This document shows positions 275 to 35,149 of a stretch of 45,244 nucleotides of DNA, in pieces. The stretch covers positions 1 to 45,244 of the forward strand of contig JBGUEF010000001.1 of assembly GCA_041821485.1 (NCBI GenBank), read 5' to 3'. Source of the stretch: Deltaproteobacteria bacterium. GTDB lineage: Bacteria > Myxococcota_A > Polyangia > Polyangiales > Houyiibacteriaceae. The notes beneath the pieces were generated by a model. That model ran no database searches. It saw only the letters and a list, made by a program, of their open reading frames with translations, and was not told the DNA's origin. Within the stretch, counting starts at the first letter, position 1. Each line of letters begins with the position of its first letter. The translations under genes were made by a program, and so were the position numbers.

Positions 275-306
275 TTAACCCTGTGAAAAAGGGGACTGTC
301 CCCTTT
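275..306. repeat. single-hairpin copy of the same palindromic element family
   Basis: TTAACCCTGTGAAAAAGGGGACTGTCCCCTTT compared with TTAACCCTTCTGAAAAGGGGACTGTCCCCTTT at 32108-32139. They are the same length, share the 16-nt core GGGGACTGTCCCCTTT and have 4 mismatches in the linker. Confidence 0.6.
286..306 (-). terminator. putative intrinsic terminator of mlaE-mlaF
   Basis: The minus strand reads GAAAGGGGACAGTCCCCTTTTTCAC: a 7-bp stem (AAAGGGG/CCCCTTT), a 5-nt loop and then a short T tract. It lies 31 nt after the mlaF stop. Confidence 0.5.
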
Positions 307-337
307 CTTCGACCACTGGCACGGTCACGGACCGCGG

Positions 338-1150
338 CTAGTCGAGTCTAATCCGCGACGCTCGCATGAACTCTGCAGTCGCTGGATGCTCGCTGTGCAG
401 CAATTCCTGTGGCGTACCCGTGGCCGTAATCTCGCCCAGGTGGAGGAAGCTCAGGTGGTCGGCGATGCGTACTACCGAGGCCATGTCGTGACTGATCACG
501 ATCGAGGTGACGCCGAACAATTCTTCGGCCTCGGTGATCAAGTCGTCGACCATCTCCGTGGTGATTGGGTCCAGGCCCGTGGTCGGCTCATCGTAAATCA
601 GGATTTCGCTCTCGAGGATCATCGCTCGGGCGACGGCGACGCGCTTCTGCATGCCTCCGGAGAGCTCGGCGGGAAGTTTGTGGGCGGCGGCGGCCACGCC
701 GAGCGCGGACAAGCGGTCCATCACGCGGTCACGCACTTCGTTGCGCGACAGATCGGTGTGCTCGCGAACCGGGAACGCAACGTTGTCGAATACCGTCATG
801 GAATCGAACAGTGCCGACATCTGAAACACCATGCCGAAGGTTCGGCGCATGGCCGCGAGGTTGAGGCCTTCGAGCTTGGCGAAGTCGACGCCGTTGACCA
901 GAAGCTCGCCGGAGTCGGGCTTCTCGAGACGGATCAGCTGGCGCATCAGCACGGTTTTGCCGGACCCAGACGGCCCGATGATCAGGTTTGTCTTCCTTCG
1001 ATGGACATCGAGGGAAACGCCCTTGAGCACGTGATGGTCTCCATAGTTCTTGTGCACGTCACGAATCCGCACATGGATCGGGTCGTCCTTCACTTGCACG
1101 GGTAGCGGCGGCCGAGTCAATCGCATCAAGTTGCTTCGAAAGACCTTCAT
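338..1150 (-). CDS. mlaF: ABC transporter ATP-binding protein, MlaF-like
   Basis: This is the C-terminal 270 aa of tracked ORF 338..1918. Motifs present: Walker A GPSGSGKT, ABC signature LSGGMQKR, Walker B ILIYDEPT, H-loop ISHD. The ATG at 1150 forms an ATGA overlap with the mlaE stop. The upstream 256 aa of the tracked ORF is an Arg/Pro-rich shadow of mlaE. Confidence 0.85.
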   Translation of the reverse strand: MKVFRSNLMRLTRPPLPVQVKDDPIHVRIRDVHKNYGDHHVLKGVSLDVHRRKTNLIIGPSGSGKTVLMRQLIRLEKPDSGELLVNGVDFAKLEGLNLAAMRRTFGMVFQMSALFDSMTVFDNVAFPVREHTDLSRNEVRDRVMDRLSALGVAAAAHKLPAELSGGMQKRVAVARAMILESEILIYDEPTTGLDPITTEMVDDLITEAEELFGVTSIVISHDMASVVRIADHLSFLHLGEITATGTPQELLHSEHPATAEFMRASRIRLD

Positions 1151-3261: not shown

Positions 3262-4161
3262 ATGGCACGGGCTCAACGACGCCACACGGAGGCGGTGAAG
3301 CGCGCCGACCAGCGGTCCACCCGCGTGCTCTGGGGCGGCATGCTCGTCGGCGGTCTCATCGCGGTCGGCATCGCGCTCGCGCCGAGCTGCCAAGCCCCGG
3401 CGGAAGAAACCGTCGCTCCGGTAGACATCACACCCAGCGAGACGTCCCGCCCCGTCACGGCGCCAGCGATCGAAGAGCTTCGCCTGCGTGTCATTGGCAA
3501 GTACCCGCACGCGACCGACGCCTTCACCCAGGGGCTCATCTGGCACGACGGCCTGATGTACGAGAGCACCGGCCAGTACGGGAAGTCGTCGCTGCGCAAG
3601 GTCCGACTCGAAGACGGTAAGGTCCTGGCGCAACGCGAGCTCGATCCAAAGTTTTTTGGCGAAGGCTTGGAGCGGGTCGGCGATCGCCTAGTTCAGCTCA
3701 CGTGGCGCTCCGGGCTCGCCTTCGTATCGGACCTGGCTACGCTCGAAGCACGCGAAACACTCAGCTACCGCGGCGAAGGTTGGGGCCTCTGCTACGACGG
3801 GAGCGTGCTGGTGATGAGCGATGGCTCATCCATGCTCGAGTTTCGTGACCCCGGATCGATGGAGCTTCTGGGCGAGGTTACGGTGTTGAGGGACGGTCGC
3901 CCCGTGCCGAAGCTCAACGAGCTCGAGTGCGTGGGCTCGGAGATCTACGCGAATATCTGGCGGCACGACGAGATCATCCGAATCGATCGCGAGAGCGGGC
4001 GCGTCACTGGGACGATAGACGCGAGCGAATTGCTATCACGCGACGAAGCAAGACGCGCCGACGTCCTCAATGGCATCGCCTACAAGCCAGAGTCGAAGAC
4101 CTTCCTGCTGACGGGCAAGCTTTGGCCTCATGTGTTCGAGGTCGAGCTCGTTCCCCGCTGA
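3262..4161 (+). CDS. glutamine cyclotransferase (bacterial/plant beta-propeller type), signal-anchored
   Basis: Motifs FTQGLIWHDGLMYESTGQYGKSSLRKV, FFGEGLE..LVQLTW and NELECVGSEIYANIW match the glutaminyl-peptide cyclotransferase family. There is an N-terminal hydrophobic anchor MLVGGLIAVGIALA. The ORF opens at a TTG at 3202; I prefer the ATG at 3262. Confidence 0.75.
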   Translation: MARAQRRHTEAVKRADQRSTRVLWGGMLVGGLIAVGIALAPSCQAPAEETVAPVDITPSETSRPVTAPAIEELRLRVIGKYPHATDAFTQGLIWHDGLMYESTGQYGKSSLRKVRLEDGKVLAQRELDPKFFGEGLERVGDRLVQLTWRSGLAFVSDLATLEARETLSYRGEGWGLCYDGSVLVMSDGSSMLEFRDPGSMELLGEVTVLRDGRPVPKLNELECVGSEIYANIWRHDEIIRIDRESGRVTGTIDASELLSRDEARRADVLNGIAYKPESKTFLLTGKLWPHVFEVELVPR

Positions 4162-5009
4162 TCGCCCGAAGGCTCTCTCACTTGCGTCACGAGCTCCGGC
4201 TCCCATTCAGCGAGCCTCGCGCGCATCGTCGCGATCGCGTCCGGGCTTTCGTCGACGAGCACGAAACCCCGACCAAGGCGCGCGGCGGCCTCGCCAGTCG
4301 TTCCGCTCCCCGCAAAGAAATCGAGGACGGTATCCCCAGGCTCGGTATGCACTTTGATGATGCGCTCGAGCACGCCAAGCGGTTTCTGCGTCGGGTACCC
4401 GGTCTTCTCTTTGCTGTTCGTCGGCACGATCGTGTGCCACCAGACGTCCGTGGGAGTCTTGCCGCGAGCCGCTTTCTCTTTCCCGACGAGCCCTGGCGCC
4501 ATGTACGGAATGCGATCCATCTCTTCAAACTGAAAGACGTAGCGCTTGGGGTCGAGAACGTACCAAAGCAGGGTGTCGTGCTTCGCAGGCCACCTCCGCT
4601 TCGGCCGGCCTCCGAAGTCGTACGCCCAAATGATCTCGTTGAGGAAACGGTCCCTGCCAAGGAGCCGGTCCAGCGCGACTTTCACGTAGTGCACCTCACG
4701 GTAGTCGAGATGCACGAACAGGGATCCATCCGCGGTCAGGCACGGAAGCGCCGCCTCGATGCGGCTCATGAGGAAAGGAATGTACGCATCGAACTCGTCT
4801 TCGTAGGTGGGGCTGTCGATCTGCTCGACGTCATAGCGCCGCCCGCCGAACCCCTGCCGCTCGCCTTCCACCGCGGCCCGCACTTGCATGCGCTGGCGGG
4901 ACTGGGTGCGTCCCGTATTGAACGGCGGGTCGATGTAAATCAGGCGCGCGTGCTCGCGCGGCAGTGTCGGGAGGACCTCCAAATTGTCGCCCTGCACGAT
5001 TCTCTTCAC
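4128..5009 (-). CDS. site-specific DNA methyltransferase, beta-class (motif IV before motif I), probably N6-adenine
   Basis: Motif IV is [10 protein letters not shown], followed by motif [17 protein letters not shown]-terminus [17 protein letters not shown] is typical of the N4/N6 MTase family. I prefer the GTG at 5009; the tracked ORF extends to 5090 through Arg-rich sequence. No restriction endonuclease gene is adjacent. Confidence 0.8.
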
Positions 5010-31404: not shown

Positions 31405-33162
31405 ATGAGCGGCCATACTGCCCCCGAGATGGGCCCGGATCGCGTCGGCGGCAGGCAGAGGCCGATTCGCATCGCCTTTGCCGTAGTGCTCGCGCTGCAG
31501 GTCTTCTTGGCCGTGTGGGGCGTCGCCGATCAATGGACTCGCGGCCACAACGGCTGGAACGGTGCCGCGTATCACAACGCCGCGCGCAACACCTTGCGCT
31601 GGGACGTGCTGTTCCCGCTTCAGTACGAGACCGCCAACGTTCCCCCAAAGACGGAGCAGCTCTACACGCACGCACCGCTCGCGCTCCACCTGCACAACGT
31701 GGCCAGCGTGAAGCTCTTCGGCGATCGCGAGCTCTCGATCCGTCTGGTCGCGGGCTTCTGGAGTGTGGCGGCGCTCTGCATGCTGTTCGCCGTAGTGAGG
31801 CGCCTCTGGGACGACGCCCACGCCCTCGCCGCCTCCGCAATCTACGTTGCCCTCCCGATCAACGCGATCTACACCAACATGGCCAACCACTCGGCCGGCT
31901 TCATCTTCTGGTCGCTACTCACCCTCTACCTCTACATCCGCTCAACCCGCGCCCCCCCCTGGAGTGTTCGAGACTTCGCCTTCTTCCTCGCCGCGTTCAC
32001 CATCGCCGCCACCTGGGACTGGCCCGCCTACTACATCGCCGCCTGCATAGCCCTCCACTGGACCCACACCGTCTCAAAAAAAGGGGACAGTCCCCTTTTT
32101 GAAAGGGTTAACCCTTCTGAAAAGGGGACTGTCCCCTTTTTGTACCTGGGGGTGTTTTGCGGCTGGGTGGCGCTGTTGTTTGTGGGGCATTTCGTTTTGG
32201 TCGAGCTGCTTACCGGGAATGTCGATGATTTGAGGGAAGCGTTCAATGCTCGGCGTGCGCTTTCCTGGGCCCGGTTTCGGACGCATTTGCTGGTGGTGCC
32301 CGAGCTGATGTTTACGGTGCCTGTTCTTGGGCTTTGCGTCGCCTGGGTGGCGGCATGGGCCGTTCGCGCGGTCCGCGGGACGGCGCGGGCGCGTGATCTG
32401 ATTCCCGTCGCGTTCCTGGTCGCTGGGTTGATTCACTACTGGACCTTTCGTTGGAGCGCGATCGTCCATTCGTACTGGGCATGGCCGATGCTGCCCGCCG
32501 TGGCGATCGCCGTTCCTGTGTCCCTCTTCGCGATGGCGCGCTGGATTCGCGAGCGTGCAGGGATCGCTGCGAGCTTCAGTGTGTTGCTCTTACTCGTTCC
32601 ACTGGCGATCCGGGTCCTTGATCTCGTTCCCGAAGGACGCTACGTCGGCGGCTCGATGTGGTTTTTCACTCCGGTTCGGGGCGCGATGGACACCTACGAC
32701 TCAGGGAGACCGGAGCTCCGCTTTGCCGAGCGCGTCAAGGCGTGGACCGACCGCGATACGGGGGTGCAACTGCACACTAGCCTCAAGCACTTTCGCCTGG
32801 AGCCTCGGTTCGACATCACCCTCGACCGAGTGACCCATCGCTGGTCGCAGAACCCGCGCGTCCAGATCTCAAACCATCAGGGAGCCACGGGGTGGGTCTT
32901 CGTCGCAGCTCTCGATGCCTTCCCCGAAGAGCAGCGCGCAGCATTCGCATCCCGCCATCCGTATCGTCAGTTCGGCAACTATTTCATGCTGGACCTACGC
33001 AGGGAGGCTCGCGACATCGAGGCGTGGGGCCTGACGCCCGTCGAGGCCACTCCTCGATGGTGGCTCTTTCACTCTTCCTTCGAACCCCCGATGAGAGCGA
33101 CACGGCTCGTCGCAGCGGAGCAATCCCTGGACGAGAAGGTCGCGGAGCTCGATGCCCCGTAG
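31405..33162 (+). CDS. GT-C fold membrane glycosyltransferase-like protein (ArnT/PMT_2-like) carrying an in-frame palindromic repeat insertion
   Basis: 585 aa from the ATG 10 nt after the mcd stop. It is multi-TM. THAPLALHLHNVASVKLFGDRELSIRLVAGFWSVAALCMLFAVVRRLW matches the hPPL...FG.sE.a.RL pattern of the ArnT/PMT_2 families. The C-terminal soluble domain is about 170 aa. Residues SKKGDSPLFERVNPSEKGTVPFL come from the repeat at 32076-32141. Confidence 0.6.
   Translation: MSGHTAPEMGPDRVGGRQRPIRIAFAVVLALQVFLAVWGVADQWTRGHNGWNGAAYHNAARNTLRWDVLFPLQYETANVPPKTEQLYTHAPLALHLHNVASVKLFGDRELSIRLVAGFWSVAALCMLFAVVRRLWDDAHALAASAIYVALPINAIYTNMANHSAGFIFWSLLTLYLYIRSTRAPPWSVRDFAFFLAAFTIAATWDWPAYYIAACIALHWTHTVSKKGDSPLFERVNPSEKGTVPFLYLGVFCGWVALLFVGHFVLVELLTGNVDDLREAFNARRALSWARFRTHLLVVPELMFTVPVLGLCVAWVAAWAVRAVRGTARARDLIPVAFLVAGLIHYWTFRWSAIVHSYWAWPMLPAVAIAVPVSLFAMARWIRERAGIAASFSVLLLLVPLAIRVLDLVPEGRYVGGSMWFFTPVRGAMDTYDSGRPELRFAERVKAWTDRDTGVQLHTSLKHFRLEPRFDITLDRVTHRWSQNPRVQISNHQGATGWVFVAALDAFPEEQRAAFASRHPYRQFGNYFMLDLRREARDIEAWGLTPVEATPRWWLFHSSFEPPMRATRLVAAEQSLDEKVAELDAP
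32076..32141. repeat. 66-nt near-perfect palindromic element (two inverted hairpins around GGGTTAACCC), intragenic and in-frame
   Basis: Sequence is AAAAAAAGGGGACAGTCCCCTTTTT GAAA GGGTTAACCC TTCTG AAAAGGGGACTGTCCCCTTTTT. GC is 44% (29/66) in a roughly 65% GC window. A related half copy lies at 275-306. Confidence 0.8.
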
Positions 33163-35149
33163 ACAGCTCGCGCCCATCCTGACTTTGTGGGCCTCGGCCT
33201 ATCTCGGATGCGTTCTGTTCCTGCTCGCGAACCTATCACCCCAAGAGTCCGTCCCAACGGCCCTCCTCGGCGAATTGTCGTGGCTCGCGCTCATGGGGTC
33301 GATCCCTACGACACTGGTATTGGGCGCGGCTTTTCGGGCGGCGCGCTCGCCACGGGCTGTGATCGCGGCGTCCACGCTGGCCGTCATTGTGTTCGGAGTG
33401 GCCATCGGCTGGGAGCACACCGACTTCCTGCTTGCGGGGCCGCAGTGGACACGTCACCCGCAGCGCCAGCTGTTTCGGGTCGCGATGGCCTCAGCGTTCG
33501 GACTGCTTGCCGCAGGGGGCTGGCTCTGGCTCATCCTGGGCGCGCGCACTCGGGACCGACGATGGACTGCGGCTTGGATGACGTTCACCGTGCTCGCAGT
33601 CGCGCTGCTGATGGCCACCATCGTGCTCTACCGAGCGTACGACTATTCCATGGCGCAGCTGGTCTTCCCGGCGGGCCTTCTTTCGGGCGCGGTGGTGTAC
33701 CTAATGGCTCGCGGGTCTCGGCTCGGGCTCGTCATCTTGGGCGCTGCCGCCGCATGCCTGCTCTTTGGACTCGGATCTCGTCTCGATCCCGCACTCGTAG
33801 CAACCGGTAAGCGCGAATTGATGGTACACAGCCGAGCGGGAGCGCTGGCGACGCTCTACGTGCTCCCTCACTTCCGGCGCGAGGACAGCTGGTCTACCGC
33901 CGGTAAGGCATGCCCCAAGCCCAGACCCGTGATGGATCGGTCTCCAATCGGCATCGAGCCAAACGGACGGCGAAACGTGATCATCGTCACGGTCGATGCC
34001 CTTCGAAAGGACGTCGTGGGCATGCAAGCAGACGGGCGCCCGGTGATGCCAGAGCTGGCGCAACTCGCGAAAGCTGGCGTGTCCTTCACGAGCGCCACAT
34101 CGACGTATCCCGCGACGCTGTTCGCCATGGGCAGCGCGTTCACCGGCCTGAGCCCGGCGGAGCTCTATCTCTCTCCCGCACTGCCCGACACGATCTTCAC
34201 ACGCTCCCGCACCCTAGTCGACCGCCAGGTCGCGGTTCTTCCCGACGTCACCTGGTTTCGTCTTCCGATCGTCGGGGAGTTGCTCGCGTCCGGCGTCGAG
34301 ACCGAGTTCGCCGGCACAGACCCCGCTGCCACCGATGCCCTCATCGCGCGTCTCCGAGCCGCACGTGAAGACGACGCCTCGATCATGGCGTGGGTCCACT
34401 ACTACGCGCCACACGACCCCTACCGACATCACCGAGAGTTCCTCTTCGGAAAGGGCCCCAAGAACGCTTACCTGAGCGAAGTGGCGTACTTCGACCGAGA
34501 GCTCGGGCGTTTGATGCGGTACTTGAATGACGATGGCTGGCTCGAGGATACGCTGGTCGTATTCTTTTCGGACCACGGCGAGGCCTTGGGAGAACAGTCC
34601 TATTGGGGACACCACGTGTACCTGAACGGTTGGATGATCGACGTCCCGCTCGTGCTCTGGCACGCCAGCCTCTCTTCTTCTGAACCACGGGTTGGCGTCA
34701 GTCTTGCGGACGTTGCCCCGACCGTCCTGCACTTCCTTGGGTTGCCTATCCCGTCGGATATCGCCGCCAAGAGCCTTTTCACCCTGCACCCAAACCTGCC
34801 GGACCGGCCGTCCTTTTCCGAGGCCTTTCCGGTGCGCGGCCGCGAGCTTTTCGATAGCTTCCGCCTGTCCGCACTCGATGACGCATCGATTCGGGCCAGG
34901 ATCCGCGGTATTCGAGCGGCGAGCAAAGGATACGAGCCCAAGGGAGCGATCAGCCGCGGCCGCTATCGACTGATCCATCATCGAGGCGCTGACACGACGC
35001 TGGTCTACGACCTCGAAGCCGGTCCGAACCAGCACCTCGATGACGGGACCGCGAGCCGGGAAGCCGGCAAGCTCCTGCAAAGCGAGCTCGAGCGATGGGA
35101 GCAGGAGCAGATGCAACGCATCCAGTGCCGTCTCCAACTCAGCGAGTAG
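33152..35149 (+). CDS. membrane-anchored alkaline-phosphatase-superfamily (sulfatase-like) transferase/hydrolase
   Basis: N-terminal region of about 240 aa is multi-TM, followed by a sulfatase fold: NVIIVTVDALRKD, SATSTYPATLFAMGSAFTG, VHYYAPHDPY, FFSDHGEALGE. The position of the Cys/Ser-x-Pro-x-Arg formylglycine motif reads T-Y-P-A-T. This suggests a Thr nucleophile as in EptA/LtaS-type phosphotransferases rather than a true sulfatase. The ATG overlaps the upstream stop by 11 nt. Confidence 0.7.
   Translation: MPRRQLAPILTLWASAYLGCVLFLLANLSPQESVPTALLGELSWLALMGSIPTTLVLGAAFRAARSPRAVIAASTLAVIVFGVAIGWEHTDFLLAGPQWTRHPQRQLFRVAMASAFGLLAAGGWLWLILGARTRDRRWTAAWMTFTVLAVALLMATIVLYRAYDYSMAQLVFPAGLLSGAVVYLMARGSRLGLVILGAAAACLLFGLGSRLDPALVATGKRELMVHSRAGALATLYVLPHFRREDSWSTAGKACPKPRPVMDRSPIGIEPNGRRNVIIVTVDALRKDVVGMQADGRPVMPELAQLAKAGVSFTSATSTYPATLFAMGSAFTGLSPAELYLSPALPDTIFTRSRTLVDRQVAVLPDVTWFRLPIVGELLASGVETEFAGTDPAATDALIARLRAAREDDASIMAWVHYYAPHDPYRHHREFLFGKGPKNAYLSEVAYFDRELGRLMRYLNDDGWLEDTLVVFFSDHGEALGEQSYWGHHVYLNGWMIDVPLVLWHASLSSSEPRVGVSLADVAPTVLHFLGLPIPSDIAAKSLFTLHPNLPDRPSFSEAFPVRGRELFDSFRLSALDDASIRARIRGIRAASKGYEPKGAISRGRYRLIHHRGADTTLVYDLEAGPNQHLDDGTASREAGKLLQSELERWEQEQMQRIQCRLQLSE

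Follow-up and report, generated by a model that had tools for sequence, protein, structure and literature searches.

A REPIN-like palindromic doublet inside a GT39 glycosyltransferase gene of Polyangiales and the dispersed repeat family to which it belongs

Described palindromic repeats and the 66-nt element

Repetitive extragenic palindromes (REPs) are short palindromic sequences with a GC core that lie mostly outside genes, frequently downstream of them, in E. coli, Pseudomonas, and Stenotrophomonas (Nunvar, 2010, PMC2817692; Bertels and Rainey, 2011, PMC3116915). They occur as inverted dimers (REPINs) folding into one long hairpin and as arrays mixed with other modules, the bacterial interspersed mosaic elements (BIMEs). 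A Y1/HUH gene for a REP-associated tyrosine transposase (RAYT) enclosed by two inverted units is denoted a REPtron, and compensated subfamilies are found together in one genome. In TIRtrons, RAYT-like genes (TIRYT) are flanked by inverted repeats of a non-GTAG type that are moderately abundant as singles, dimers, or groups, and the motif GGGGWSAS is shared by the repeats on either side of such genes (Di Nocera et al., 2013, PMC3733652). This work concerns the first 45,244 nt of contig JBGUEF010000001.1 (assembly GCA_041821485.1; Polyangiales), hereafter the window, in which a 66-nt palindromic element (32076-32141) lies in-frame within a gene for a membrane glycosyltransferase of family 39 (GT39). 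The element belongs to a dispersed, evidently mobile repeat family of uncultured marine Polyangiales/Myxococcota that shares the traits listed above, with a transposase that is RAYT-like; the habits of the family are REP-like, and a REPtron exists in a related genome. Its nearest known counterparts are the REP/REPIN-RAYT systems and BIMEs, more precisely the TIRtron/TIRYT repeats with GGGGWSAS. Unlike REP/REPIN-RAYT systems, the family carries the tag TTAA(CCC) instead of GTAG or CGTC and a perfect terminator-like hairpin with A- and T-runs, its hosts are Myxococcota, and its mobility is inferred.

Palindromes of this kind are also met inside genes. Xanthomonas, Stenotrophomonas, and Thauera are genera of high GC content. 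Intragenic REPs, mostly dimers encoding 20-30 aa, were catalogued in genera such as these (Di Nocera et al., 2013, PMC3733652), so that such behavior, of which the initial annotation of the window was not aware for this kind of high-GC genome, is already described. The hosts include tRNA-synthetase genes and recB, the latter with copies at roughly the same place in two species of Xanthomonas, and RPE-4 and RPE-6, two of the Rickettsia palindromic elements (RPEs), were identified as CGTC-type REPs (PMC3733652). A review of miniature transposable elements with inverted repeats (MITEs) regards in-frame fusions as not unusual and RPEs as the extreme case. The present copies resemble intragenic REPs (PMC3733652) and RPEs (Ogata, 2000, 2002) as in-frame, stop-free palindromes of conserved genes, often dimers of 20-30 aa, located in loops or linkers, sometimes at the same site in related species, and with hosts of the tRNA-synthetase type. 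They differ from RPEs by their myxococcotal hosts and their size (units of 33-45 nt, as against 100-150 bp for RPE-1); this separation is one by description, and membership in the RPEs is not claimed. The literature search found no description of such repeats in Myxococcota, and the catalog of intragenic REPs (PMC3733652) does not mention this phylum.

The stretch 32076-32141 reads AAAAAAAGGGGACAGTCCCCTTTTTGAAAGGGTTAACCCTTCTGAAAAGGGGACTGTCCCCTTTTT, a near-perfect palindrome in which two inverted units of about 33 nt are joined at GGGTTAACCC. A repeat finder delimits two arms of 32 nt each (32078-32109 and 32110-32141) that are 91% complementary with a gap of 0; the initial annotation had described two inverted hairpins here, and every factual statement it made on the element holds. 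On the plus strand, an A-run (32076-82), the hairpin core GGGGACAGTCCCC (32083-95), and a T-run (32096-100) are followed by the central palindrome (32105-32114, equal on both strands), which is a fusion of two TTAA tags, and then by the second core GGGGACTGTCCCC (32124-36) and its T-run (32137-41). The element can thus be written as a REPIN-like doublet of the form hairpin-tag-hairpin, in which two inverted REP-like units share the central TTAA and occupy codons ~217-238 of the GT39 gene. The left unit, TTAACCC-TTTCAA-AAAGGGGACTGTCCCCTTTT (32079..32111, minus strand), and the right unit, TTAACCC-TTCTGA-AAAGGGGACTGTCCCCTTTT (32108..32140, plus strand), match the unit pattern of the family without mismatch and reach position weight matrix (PWM) scores of 71.6 and 66.3, respectively, versus a shuffle maximum of -20.6. 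The 20-mer AAAAGGGGACTGTCCCCTTT has three sites in the window, each on both strands, namely the two hairpins and a further one at 287-306; the number expected by chance is 0 (100 shuffles).

As the initial annotation had pointed out, the element comprises 22 codons in-frame inside the open reading frame (ORF) 31429-33162 and is poor in GC (0.44 vs 0.64 in the flanks). Its RNA folds at -57.9 kcal/mol (z = -7.9), and the Rfam scan of the window gives no match at gathering thresholds. Stop codons are absent from four of the six frames, among them the gene frame, which encodes KKGDSPLFERVNPSEKGTVPF, and a reverse frame, which encodes KGDSPLFRRVNPFKKGTVPFF. This had been read as equal tolerance of insertion in either orientation. 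The observation stands, although it carries less weight than it was given, as any near-perfect palindrome with a length divisible by 3 encodes the same peptide in both orientations. The hairpin itself lacks stop codons in all six frames because of its composition. Since frames are paired by symmetry, two of three independent frames are open, for which the estimated P of ~0.17 is unremarkable.

The repeat family and its RAYT-like relative

Members of the family were identified by the unit pattern TTAACCC-N6-AAA-GGGGACWGTCCCC-TTT and its compensated variant GGGGTCWGACCCC; the hairpin variants are denoted H (GGGGACAG) and H' (GGGGTCAG). Scanning one genome per species with a hairpin 19-mer returned at least 119 loci in many phyla, so that this 19-mer was discarded as an unspecific family marker. 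The scan of metagenome contigs with the unit pattern, both hairpin variants being allowed, yielded at least 126 clusters on at least 120 contigs. About 160 further sites were read in total, ~37 in Myxococcota metagenome-assembled genomes (MAGs) and 126 clusters on 120 marine-sediment contigs, which, along with the zero expectation of the 20-mer in shuffles, substantiates the earlier suggestion of a repeat family rather than chance. Among the genome matches listed, the full unit (TTAACCC, 9 nt, GGGGACWGTCCCC, and the T-run; 0-2 mismatches) is confined to Myxococcota MAGs (Polyangiales, Sandaracinaceae, Polyangiaceae, and 'Myxococcales bin5'), which hold the ~37 sites. No copy of the unit was found in the viral contigs scanned.

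The consensus of the listed marine-sediment clusters is a 45-nt perfect palindrome, TTAACCCTTTCAAAAAGGGGACTGTCCCCTTTTTGAAAGGGTTAA, in which 9 nt separate the conserved tag TTAACCC from the stem's GGGG. Most listed clusters (99 of 126) have one hairpin and the remaining 27 have two; the forms encountered are tag-hairpin singles, tag-hairpin-tag units, hairpin-tag-hairpin doublets like that of the window, arrays (loci L158, L199, and L208), and mosaics. The fifth stem pair is A-T in 124 and T-A in 30 units of the listed clusters, and mismatched in only 2 of 156, although each of the four combinations would have satisfied the search pattern. Both variants co-occur on single contigs. A third module, AGGCGATAGCGTGGGGGCGGTGGGGCGGGACAAACTGCCGCCGAAGGCGTCCGG, of ~54 nt is often placed between TTAA tag and hairpin and is sometimes arranged in tandem (L133 10681-10790; L174 4998; L179 5437; L209 212, minus strand; L180 1172; L163 2462 and 2514, the latter on the minus strand; L242 1833 and 1851, the latter on the minus strand), which makes the family a mosaic like the BIMEs. 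Read in-frame, this module gives GDSVGAVGRDKLPPKAS, the insert of GT39 alleles P0006, P0010, P0014, P0016, and P0112. It has no Rfam match, and Rfam searches of five element-rich loci at E-values up to 1 gave nothing relevant.

The hairpins H and H' fit GGGGWSAS, a comparison by motif only; a palindromic GGGG-N5-CCCC core fits by chance in about 1 in 8 cases. Prompted by this fit, pairs of units 0.5-0.9 kb apart were inspected. In L176, a 217-aa protein is encoded between two inverted units (3432-4127, minus strand). It matches Pfam Y1_Tnp with 47 bits, and its sole PDB match is E. coli TnpArep (4ER8, E = 0.0012), to which it aligns at both the HUH motif and the catalytic Tyr. The locus has the layout H'-TTTTTGAATGGGTTAA, 45 nt, ATG...ACT TAA CCC TTCTAAAAA-H', with the tags H'-GGGTTAA and TTAACCC-H', and the stop codon of the RAYT-like gene is the TAA of the tag (3432-3440). 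Deletion of the sequence between the two TTAAs of this REPtron leaves hairpin-GGGTTAACCC-hairpin, the architecture of the window doublet. The identical protein is found on six contigs (L176 and L254-L258), beside purS-purC-purB, and all six start at the upstream hairpin; one of them, L255 (CAYZDM010000439), belongs to a Sandaracinaceae MAG in which the dispersed units L013 and L126 are present as well. The same core, without the TTAACCC tag, flanks RAYT-like genes in Nitrospira, Planctomycetota, Gammaproteobacteria, and Nitrospirae, and the Nitrospira gene (L016) scores 81.4 bits with the NCBIfam model NF047646, above the cut-off of 80. Five RAYT-like genes that are directly flanked by hairpins among ~250 loci picked by the hairpin pattern alone are far above chance, and the link to such genes accounts for a core found across phyla. 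As in TIRtrons, the RAYT-like proteins have a C-terminal extension (217-250 aa vs 165 aa for the E. coli RAYT).

Several observations stand beside this link. All five pairs of units 0.5-0.85 kb apart have REPtron geometry with the TTAA tags inward (L144 332-876; L185 6574-7313; L211 34-937; L247 356-1139; L176 3401-4159), whereas 1 in 4 would be expected by chance for this orientation. Four of them enclose a single gene not encoding a transposase (a MutH-domain protein, a glyoxalase, and two unknowns), and such REPtron-like frames may reflect gene capture or replacement. A 2.2-kb stretch between inward-facing units in L049, considered as a transposon, was rejected, as it holds the housekeeping genes rlmH, comF-like, and smpB. 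The exact core GGGGACTGTCCCC is also present in Actinomycetota, Coriobacteriia, Aminicenantes, Acidobacteriota, Planctomycetota, and others (L010-L128, e.g. L046 7915-7990, L124 4590-4700, L060, L072, L107, L044, and L047). These genomes have their own outer stem each, e.g. TGCATAAAAGGGG..., and some contain tandem arrays with a period of ~39-60 nt; a flanked RAYT-like gene is seen in part of them. An Aminicenantaceae MAG (L047 425-457, 1857-1889, and 5782-5814) combines the same hairpin with a similar, distinct tag, TTCACCCC, in direct rather than inverted neighbors, and may represent a sister family outside Myxococcota.

Copies of the family are concentrated outside genes. Frames coding from stop to stop make up 84% of the sampled DNA, yet hold only 10 of 130 clusters; 116 of the 126 listed clusters lie outside genes, and ~97% of all ~160 sites read are extragenic. 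A gene 3' end is found within 150 nt of 79 of the 116 extragenic clusters. Distances to the stop codon show two peaks, one of 2-6 nt, with the stop codon running into the A-run, and one of 13 nt, with the TTAA tag contributing its TAA as the stop codon. The latter arrangement, with the TAA of TTAACCC serving as stop codon of the neighboring gene, was seen in 13 clusters of L134-L253, and elsewhere a TAA or TAG is often fused to the A-run. Convergent, tandem, and divergent contexts are distributed 26:30:9 for the clusters versus 109:243:87 for gene pairs of the same loci. Most of the apparent intragenic matches turned out to lie in 5' leaders that precede an evident start codon, as in MetY (L172), FtsA (L164), FdhD (L193), and L151.

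The other copy that the initial annotation had noticed in the window illustrates this placement. It is a single unit of the same family, TTAACCC-TGTGAA-AAAGGGGACTGTCCCCTTTC (275..307, plus strand), detected by both pattern and PWM scans, the latter of which found no copies in the window besides this unit and the doublet. The unit is situated 30 nt downstream of the stop codon of a minus-strand gene for an MlaF-like ABC-transporter ATPase (338..1105; Pfam ABC_tran and ORF list), whose 3' end faces it, and upstream of this gene lies an MlaE gene (1150-1998; Pfam MlaE). On the minus strand, the hairpin precedes the T-run, i.e. the unit takes the position of a terminator, and an orthologous copy is present in L201. 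Its location at a 3' end agrees with general reports on REPs (PMC3733652). Extragenic copies including this one fit an intrinsic terminator in sequence and position.

In-frame copies and their alleles

The host gene of the doublet (31429..33162, plus strand, start approximate) encodes a GT39/PMT_2 membrane glycosyltransferase of 577 aa (Pfam PMT_2 PF13231, E = 2.7e-8). More than 120 orthologues with 58-98% identity, named glycosyltransferase family 39, are found in MAGs of Polyangiales, Myxococcales, and Deltaproteobacteria. The initial annotation had proposed an alignment of orthologues as a check, and this alignment (31 orthologues, with the loops of 120) reveals an insertion into a variable loop: the insert adds 22 residues directly behind the conserved WDWPAYYIA.CIALHW, and the loop is hypervariable in length and sequence among the 120 orthologues. 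In an AlphaFold2 model (mean predicted local distance difference test score, pLDDT, 73.9), it is positioned behind helix 199-216 and ahead of helix 235-262, and residues 220-233 have a pLDDT below 50. At this site, an unrelated loop of 19 aa (type W.L..PRS..PASGS..Q) is found in most orthologues. Another route of loop expansion is seen in orthologue P0033, whose loop carries a threefold tandem repeat of ALSGERTTGT.

Further alleles carry elements at the same place, and their forms are confirmed by the DNA of eleven orthologous loci. They comprise the same doublet (KKGDSPLF...KGTVPFL), a doublet of the variant hairpin (KGVRPLF...KGSDPFL), one hairpin only (KKGVRPFF or KKGSDPFL), decayed copies, and doublets with another module at the center. 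L004 and L250 carry GGGGTCAGACCCC, L007 has a decayed, GC-enriched remnant, and L009 is element-free. Between the two TTAAs, 6-19 additional bases are present in L001, L184, L230, and L008, so that the central GGGTTAACCC is the point at which orthologues (L001, L008, L184, L230, and L133) contain extra DNA. In a neighbor-joining tree calculated without the loop, alleles with the element are intermingled with those lacking it, also among the closest relatives of the window, and P0009, P0011, and P0013 are element-free close sisters. The allele pattern looks like recombination.

In-frame copies are present in three genes, i.e. those for GT39, EpmA, and a LolC/E-like permease. Among the metagenome clusters, GT39 is represented by L184, L230, and L250. 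The copy in the permease (FtsX/MacB_PCD; L141) encodes the peptide NPTPEKGVRPLFERVK within a long low-complexity insert, and that in EpmA (L087, annotated as such by NCBI) encodes LTPLAKGDSPLLRGVN. At one site, EpmA orthologues exhibit KGDSPLF, KGVRPLF, KRGQSPL, KGELSPF, or doublets, versus the common ALDQPAPELQPPW. The EpmA genes of L129 and L130 share 93% DNA identity, and in L129, 33 nt (ACAGAAAAAGGGGAACTGTCCCCTTTTTCTGTG) replace 27 nt without target duplication; this is the sole clean pair of filled and empty sites. As the replacement is located within a tract of ~150 nt with raised divergence, it points to allele exchange by recombination. Over their last 400 nt, the two genes are almost identical (~100%, alignment columns 690-1080), compared to ~92% before (columns 0-520). 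Judged from the alignment, this mosaic indicates a recent homologous exchange between lineages, independent of the hairpin. An L131-like gene was tested as donor of the L129 hairpin allele and is not the donor. Independent insertions into EpmA, considered since the hairpin is read there in three frames, were also set aside, as slippage by one nucleotide in either direction in the A- and T-runs, along with shared loop boundaries, explains the different frames better.

In-frame residence is therefore real and recurrent but limited to ~3% of sites: truly intragenic are 4 of the 126 listed clusters, in two genes, and one of the ~37 MAG sites. The initial annotation had seen the hallmark of RPEs in the GT39 copy. 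Such behavior is indeed found in all three genes; it is rare, however, and colonization of ORFs is no hallmark of the family, which differs from RPEs in lacking their high proportion of in-frame intragenic copies.

Proposed origin and rival explanations

Taken together, the element is probably a REPIN-like doublet of a mosaic family with a RAYT-like REPtron relative, carried by the GT39 gene as a tolerated in-frame passenger. Each unit consists of a perfect 13-nt core GGGGACWGTCCCC bracketed by A-run and T-run, a short spacer, and the TTAACCC tag, two units being fused at TTAA in the doublet; the full-size relative is the REPtron, with its gene for a RAYT-like Y1 (HUH) tyrosine transposase between two inward-facing TTAA tags. 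By analogy with RAYT and IS200/IS605 enzymes, it is supposed that the transposase recognizes the hairpin in single-stranded DNA and cuts near the tag, with TTAA at or near the cut site, and that units and doublets spread in trans without target-site duplication. Insertion sequences (IS) of the IS200/IS605 type and their miniature derivatives (palindrome-associated transposable elements, PATEs) resemble the family in the Y1 HUH transposase, subterminal hairpins in single-stranded DNA, a tetranucleotide near the hairpin, and the absence of target duplication. Unlike in these elements, the ends here are symmetric inverted copies, and the transposase gene appears fixed at one locus (beside purS-purC-purB) instead of being multi-copy. 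Outside genes, the hairpin and its U-run may act as a bidirectional intrinsic terminator or a 3' stabilizer. The GT39 copy would be tolerated as 22 stop-free codons in a hypervariable low-confidence loop between two helices, and it is most likely neutral or nearly so. Recombination, re-insertion, or conversion would then distribute alleles with and without the element over related lineages and so produce the GT39 series, which comprises doublets of H or H', solitary hairpins, decayed copies, and nested modules.

A number of findings weigh against such an origin. The family consensus contains neither GTAG nor CGTC, and the palindrome of its hairpin is perfect, in contrast to the imperfect ones of classical REPs. 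The sole NCBIfam match of the L176 protein, NF047646 (REP_Tyr_transpos), scores 73.8 bits and thus falls below the curated cut-off of 80, as does the L011 protein with 70.6 bits. The sole REPtron in Myxococcota is flanked by H', while the window units are H; no RAYT-like gene is present in the 45-kb window, so that the link to the source genome is by family only. A simple terminator scan does not flag the hairpins, calling none of the extragenic copies, because pairing between A-run and T-run deprives them of a free tail. Transposition is presumed, and recombination and gene conversion alone could produce the allelic pattern. Finally, between the window and L008 or L230, the arms are ~91% identical in spite of flanking third codon positions that agree at only 48-64%, which makes selection on the hairpin at the GT39 site possible.

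This arm conservation, in the presence of third positions near saturation, is also the chief support of the main rival, according to which the intragenic hairpins are a selected regulatory device, i.e. a translation-sensitive terminator or attenuator, or a site of RNA processing or stability, that tunes the 3' half of GT39 and the adjacent sulfatase-family gene. That gene (33152..35149, plus strand) is located downstream and overlaps the GT39 stop by 11 nt (33152-33162), thus sharing its transcript, and it would be affected if the hairpins terminated transcription. A U5 stretch behind each hairpin, the stability of the whole-element fold given above, and the terminator positions of extragenic copies fit such a role. 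The patchy distribution and the visible decay weaken this explanation: most orthologues, including the close sisters named above, are element-free, the element is decayed in L007 and elsewhere reduced to one hairpin or replaced by other modules, and a like allelic series exists in EpmA in a different operon context. Arm conservation is also explained if the element was recently acquired, or converted, from a family that is strongly conserved throughout the genome. A selected device is regarded as unlikely.

Alternatively, the units could be non-mobile, i.e. common intrinsic terminators whose similarity is maintained through selection and ectopic gene conversion, with the intragenic copies as patches of conversion or recombination. 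Their seat behind stop codons is in line with this proposal, as are the replacement within a recombination-like tract in L129/L130 and the fact that no target duplication was seen. Dispersed terminator-like repeats of a low-GC Gram-positive host offer a parallel to the family in their intergenic location and terminator-like core, but differ in being unrelated in sequence; to our knowledge, neither a RAYT link nor in-frame copies exist there. However, the units share a non-hairpin TTAACCC tag at a fixed spacing of 9 nt and mosaic modules, which point to common descent and copying, they flank RAYT-like genes in REPtron geometry in five phyla, and they also occur in 5' leaders and divergent intergenic regions, where terminators have no role. 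We give the non-mobile alternative little credence.

Equally, it could be proposed that the repeats are MITEs of a TTAA-targeting cut-and-paste DDE transposon (piggyBac- or IS-like). The true element would then be the 45-nt CCC...GGG between duplicated TTAA, and the doublet would consist of two halves. The 45-nt palindromes are indeed bounded by TTAA on both sides with CCC and GGG ends, and doublets in L001, L111, L110, and L068 contain extra DNA between two TTAAs. Yet the gene between the TTAAs encodes a Y1 transposase, and an all-against-all comparison of 1066 ORFs near elements (~860 kb) returned large paralogous families only, with no recurrent transposase of the DDE or any other type. Moreover, the filled and empty EpmA alleles differ by a replacement without TTAA duplication, and single units with one TTAA are commonest, in keeping with the prevalence of single-hairpin clusters. 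The DDE alternative is considered very improbable. An assembly chimera or sequencing artefact at the hairpin can be practically dismissed: although short-read MAG contigs often break here, as the ends near listed clusters (given below) and the starts of the six RAYT contigs illustrate, the element, with lineage-specific substitutions and an intact flanking frame, recurs at an identical codon position in orthologous genes from at least 10 independent assemblies (L001-L008, L133, L184, L230, and L250; JGI, ENA, and NCBI), and this recurrence of the same in-frame arrangement excludes a chimera.

A bolder reading takes GGGGACWGTCCCC as the conserved recognition module of one RAYT-like clade across at least six phyla and as a portable bidirectional terminator. 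In-frame copies would then not be neutral. Instead, they would be steered time and again into the same exposed loops (GT39, EpmA, and LolC/E), where they might attenuate expression in a manner coupled to translation or else diversify the loops. If true, it would explain the multi-allelic series at identical sites and an arm conservation beyond synonymous saturation; at present, we hold it to be unlikely. With the probable origin as a REPIN-like passenger, REP/RAYT systems and the in-frame habit of REPs are extended to uncultured marine Myxococcota. New are the lineage, the TTAACCC tag, the perfect terminator-like hairpin, the clear relation between REPtron and doublet, and the multi-allelic loops. 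The doublet equals a REPtron minus its transposase gene, and the tag supplies stop codons, including that of the transposase itself. The core next to RAYT-like genes in several phyla provides a handle on DNA recognition by these enzymes, a question still open for REPs. In practice, such hairpins break short-read contigs, add 11-50 variable residues to conserved proteins, and can pass for terminators inside genes.

Some minor observations remain to be mentioned. Contigs end within 150 nt of 21 of the 126 listed clusters, in or next to the hairpins (e.g. L014, L033, L040, L051, L127, L162, L163, L249, and L254-L258), and since short-read contigs break there, the repeats will be under-counted in MAGs. 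The gene block of acyl-CoA dehydrogenase, GT39, sulfatase, and sulfatase is syntenic in all orthologous loci read (L001-L008). Around 350 nt upstream of a hairpin-tag-module-hairpin cluster in L174, a sub-threshold match to 6S RNA is found (4413-4606, plus strand; 34.8 bits vs the gathering threshold of 46.4, E = 7e-4).

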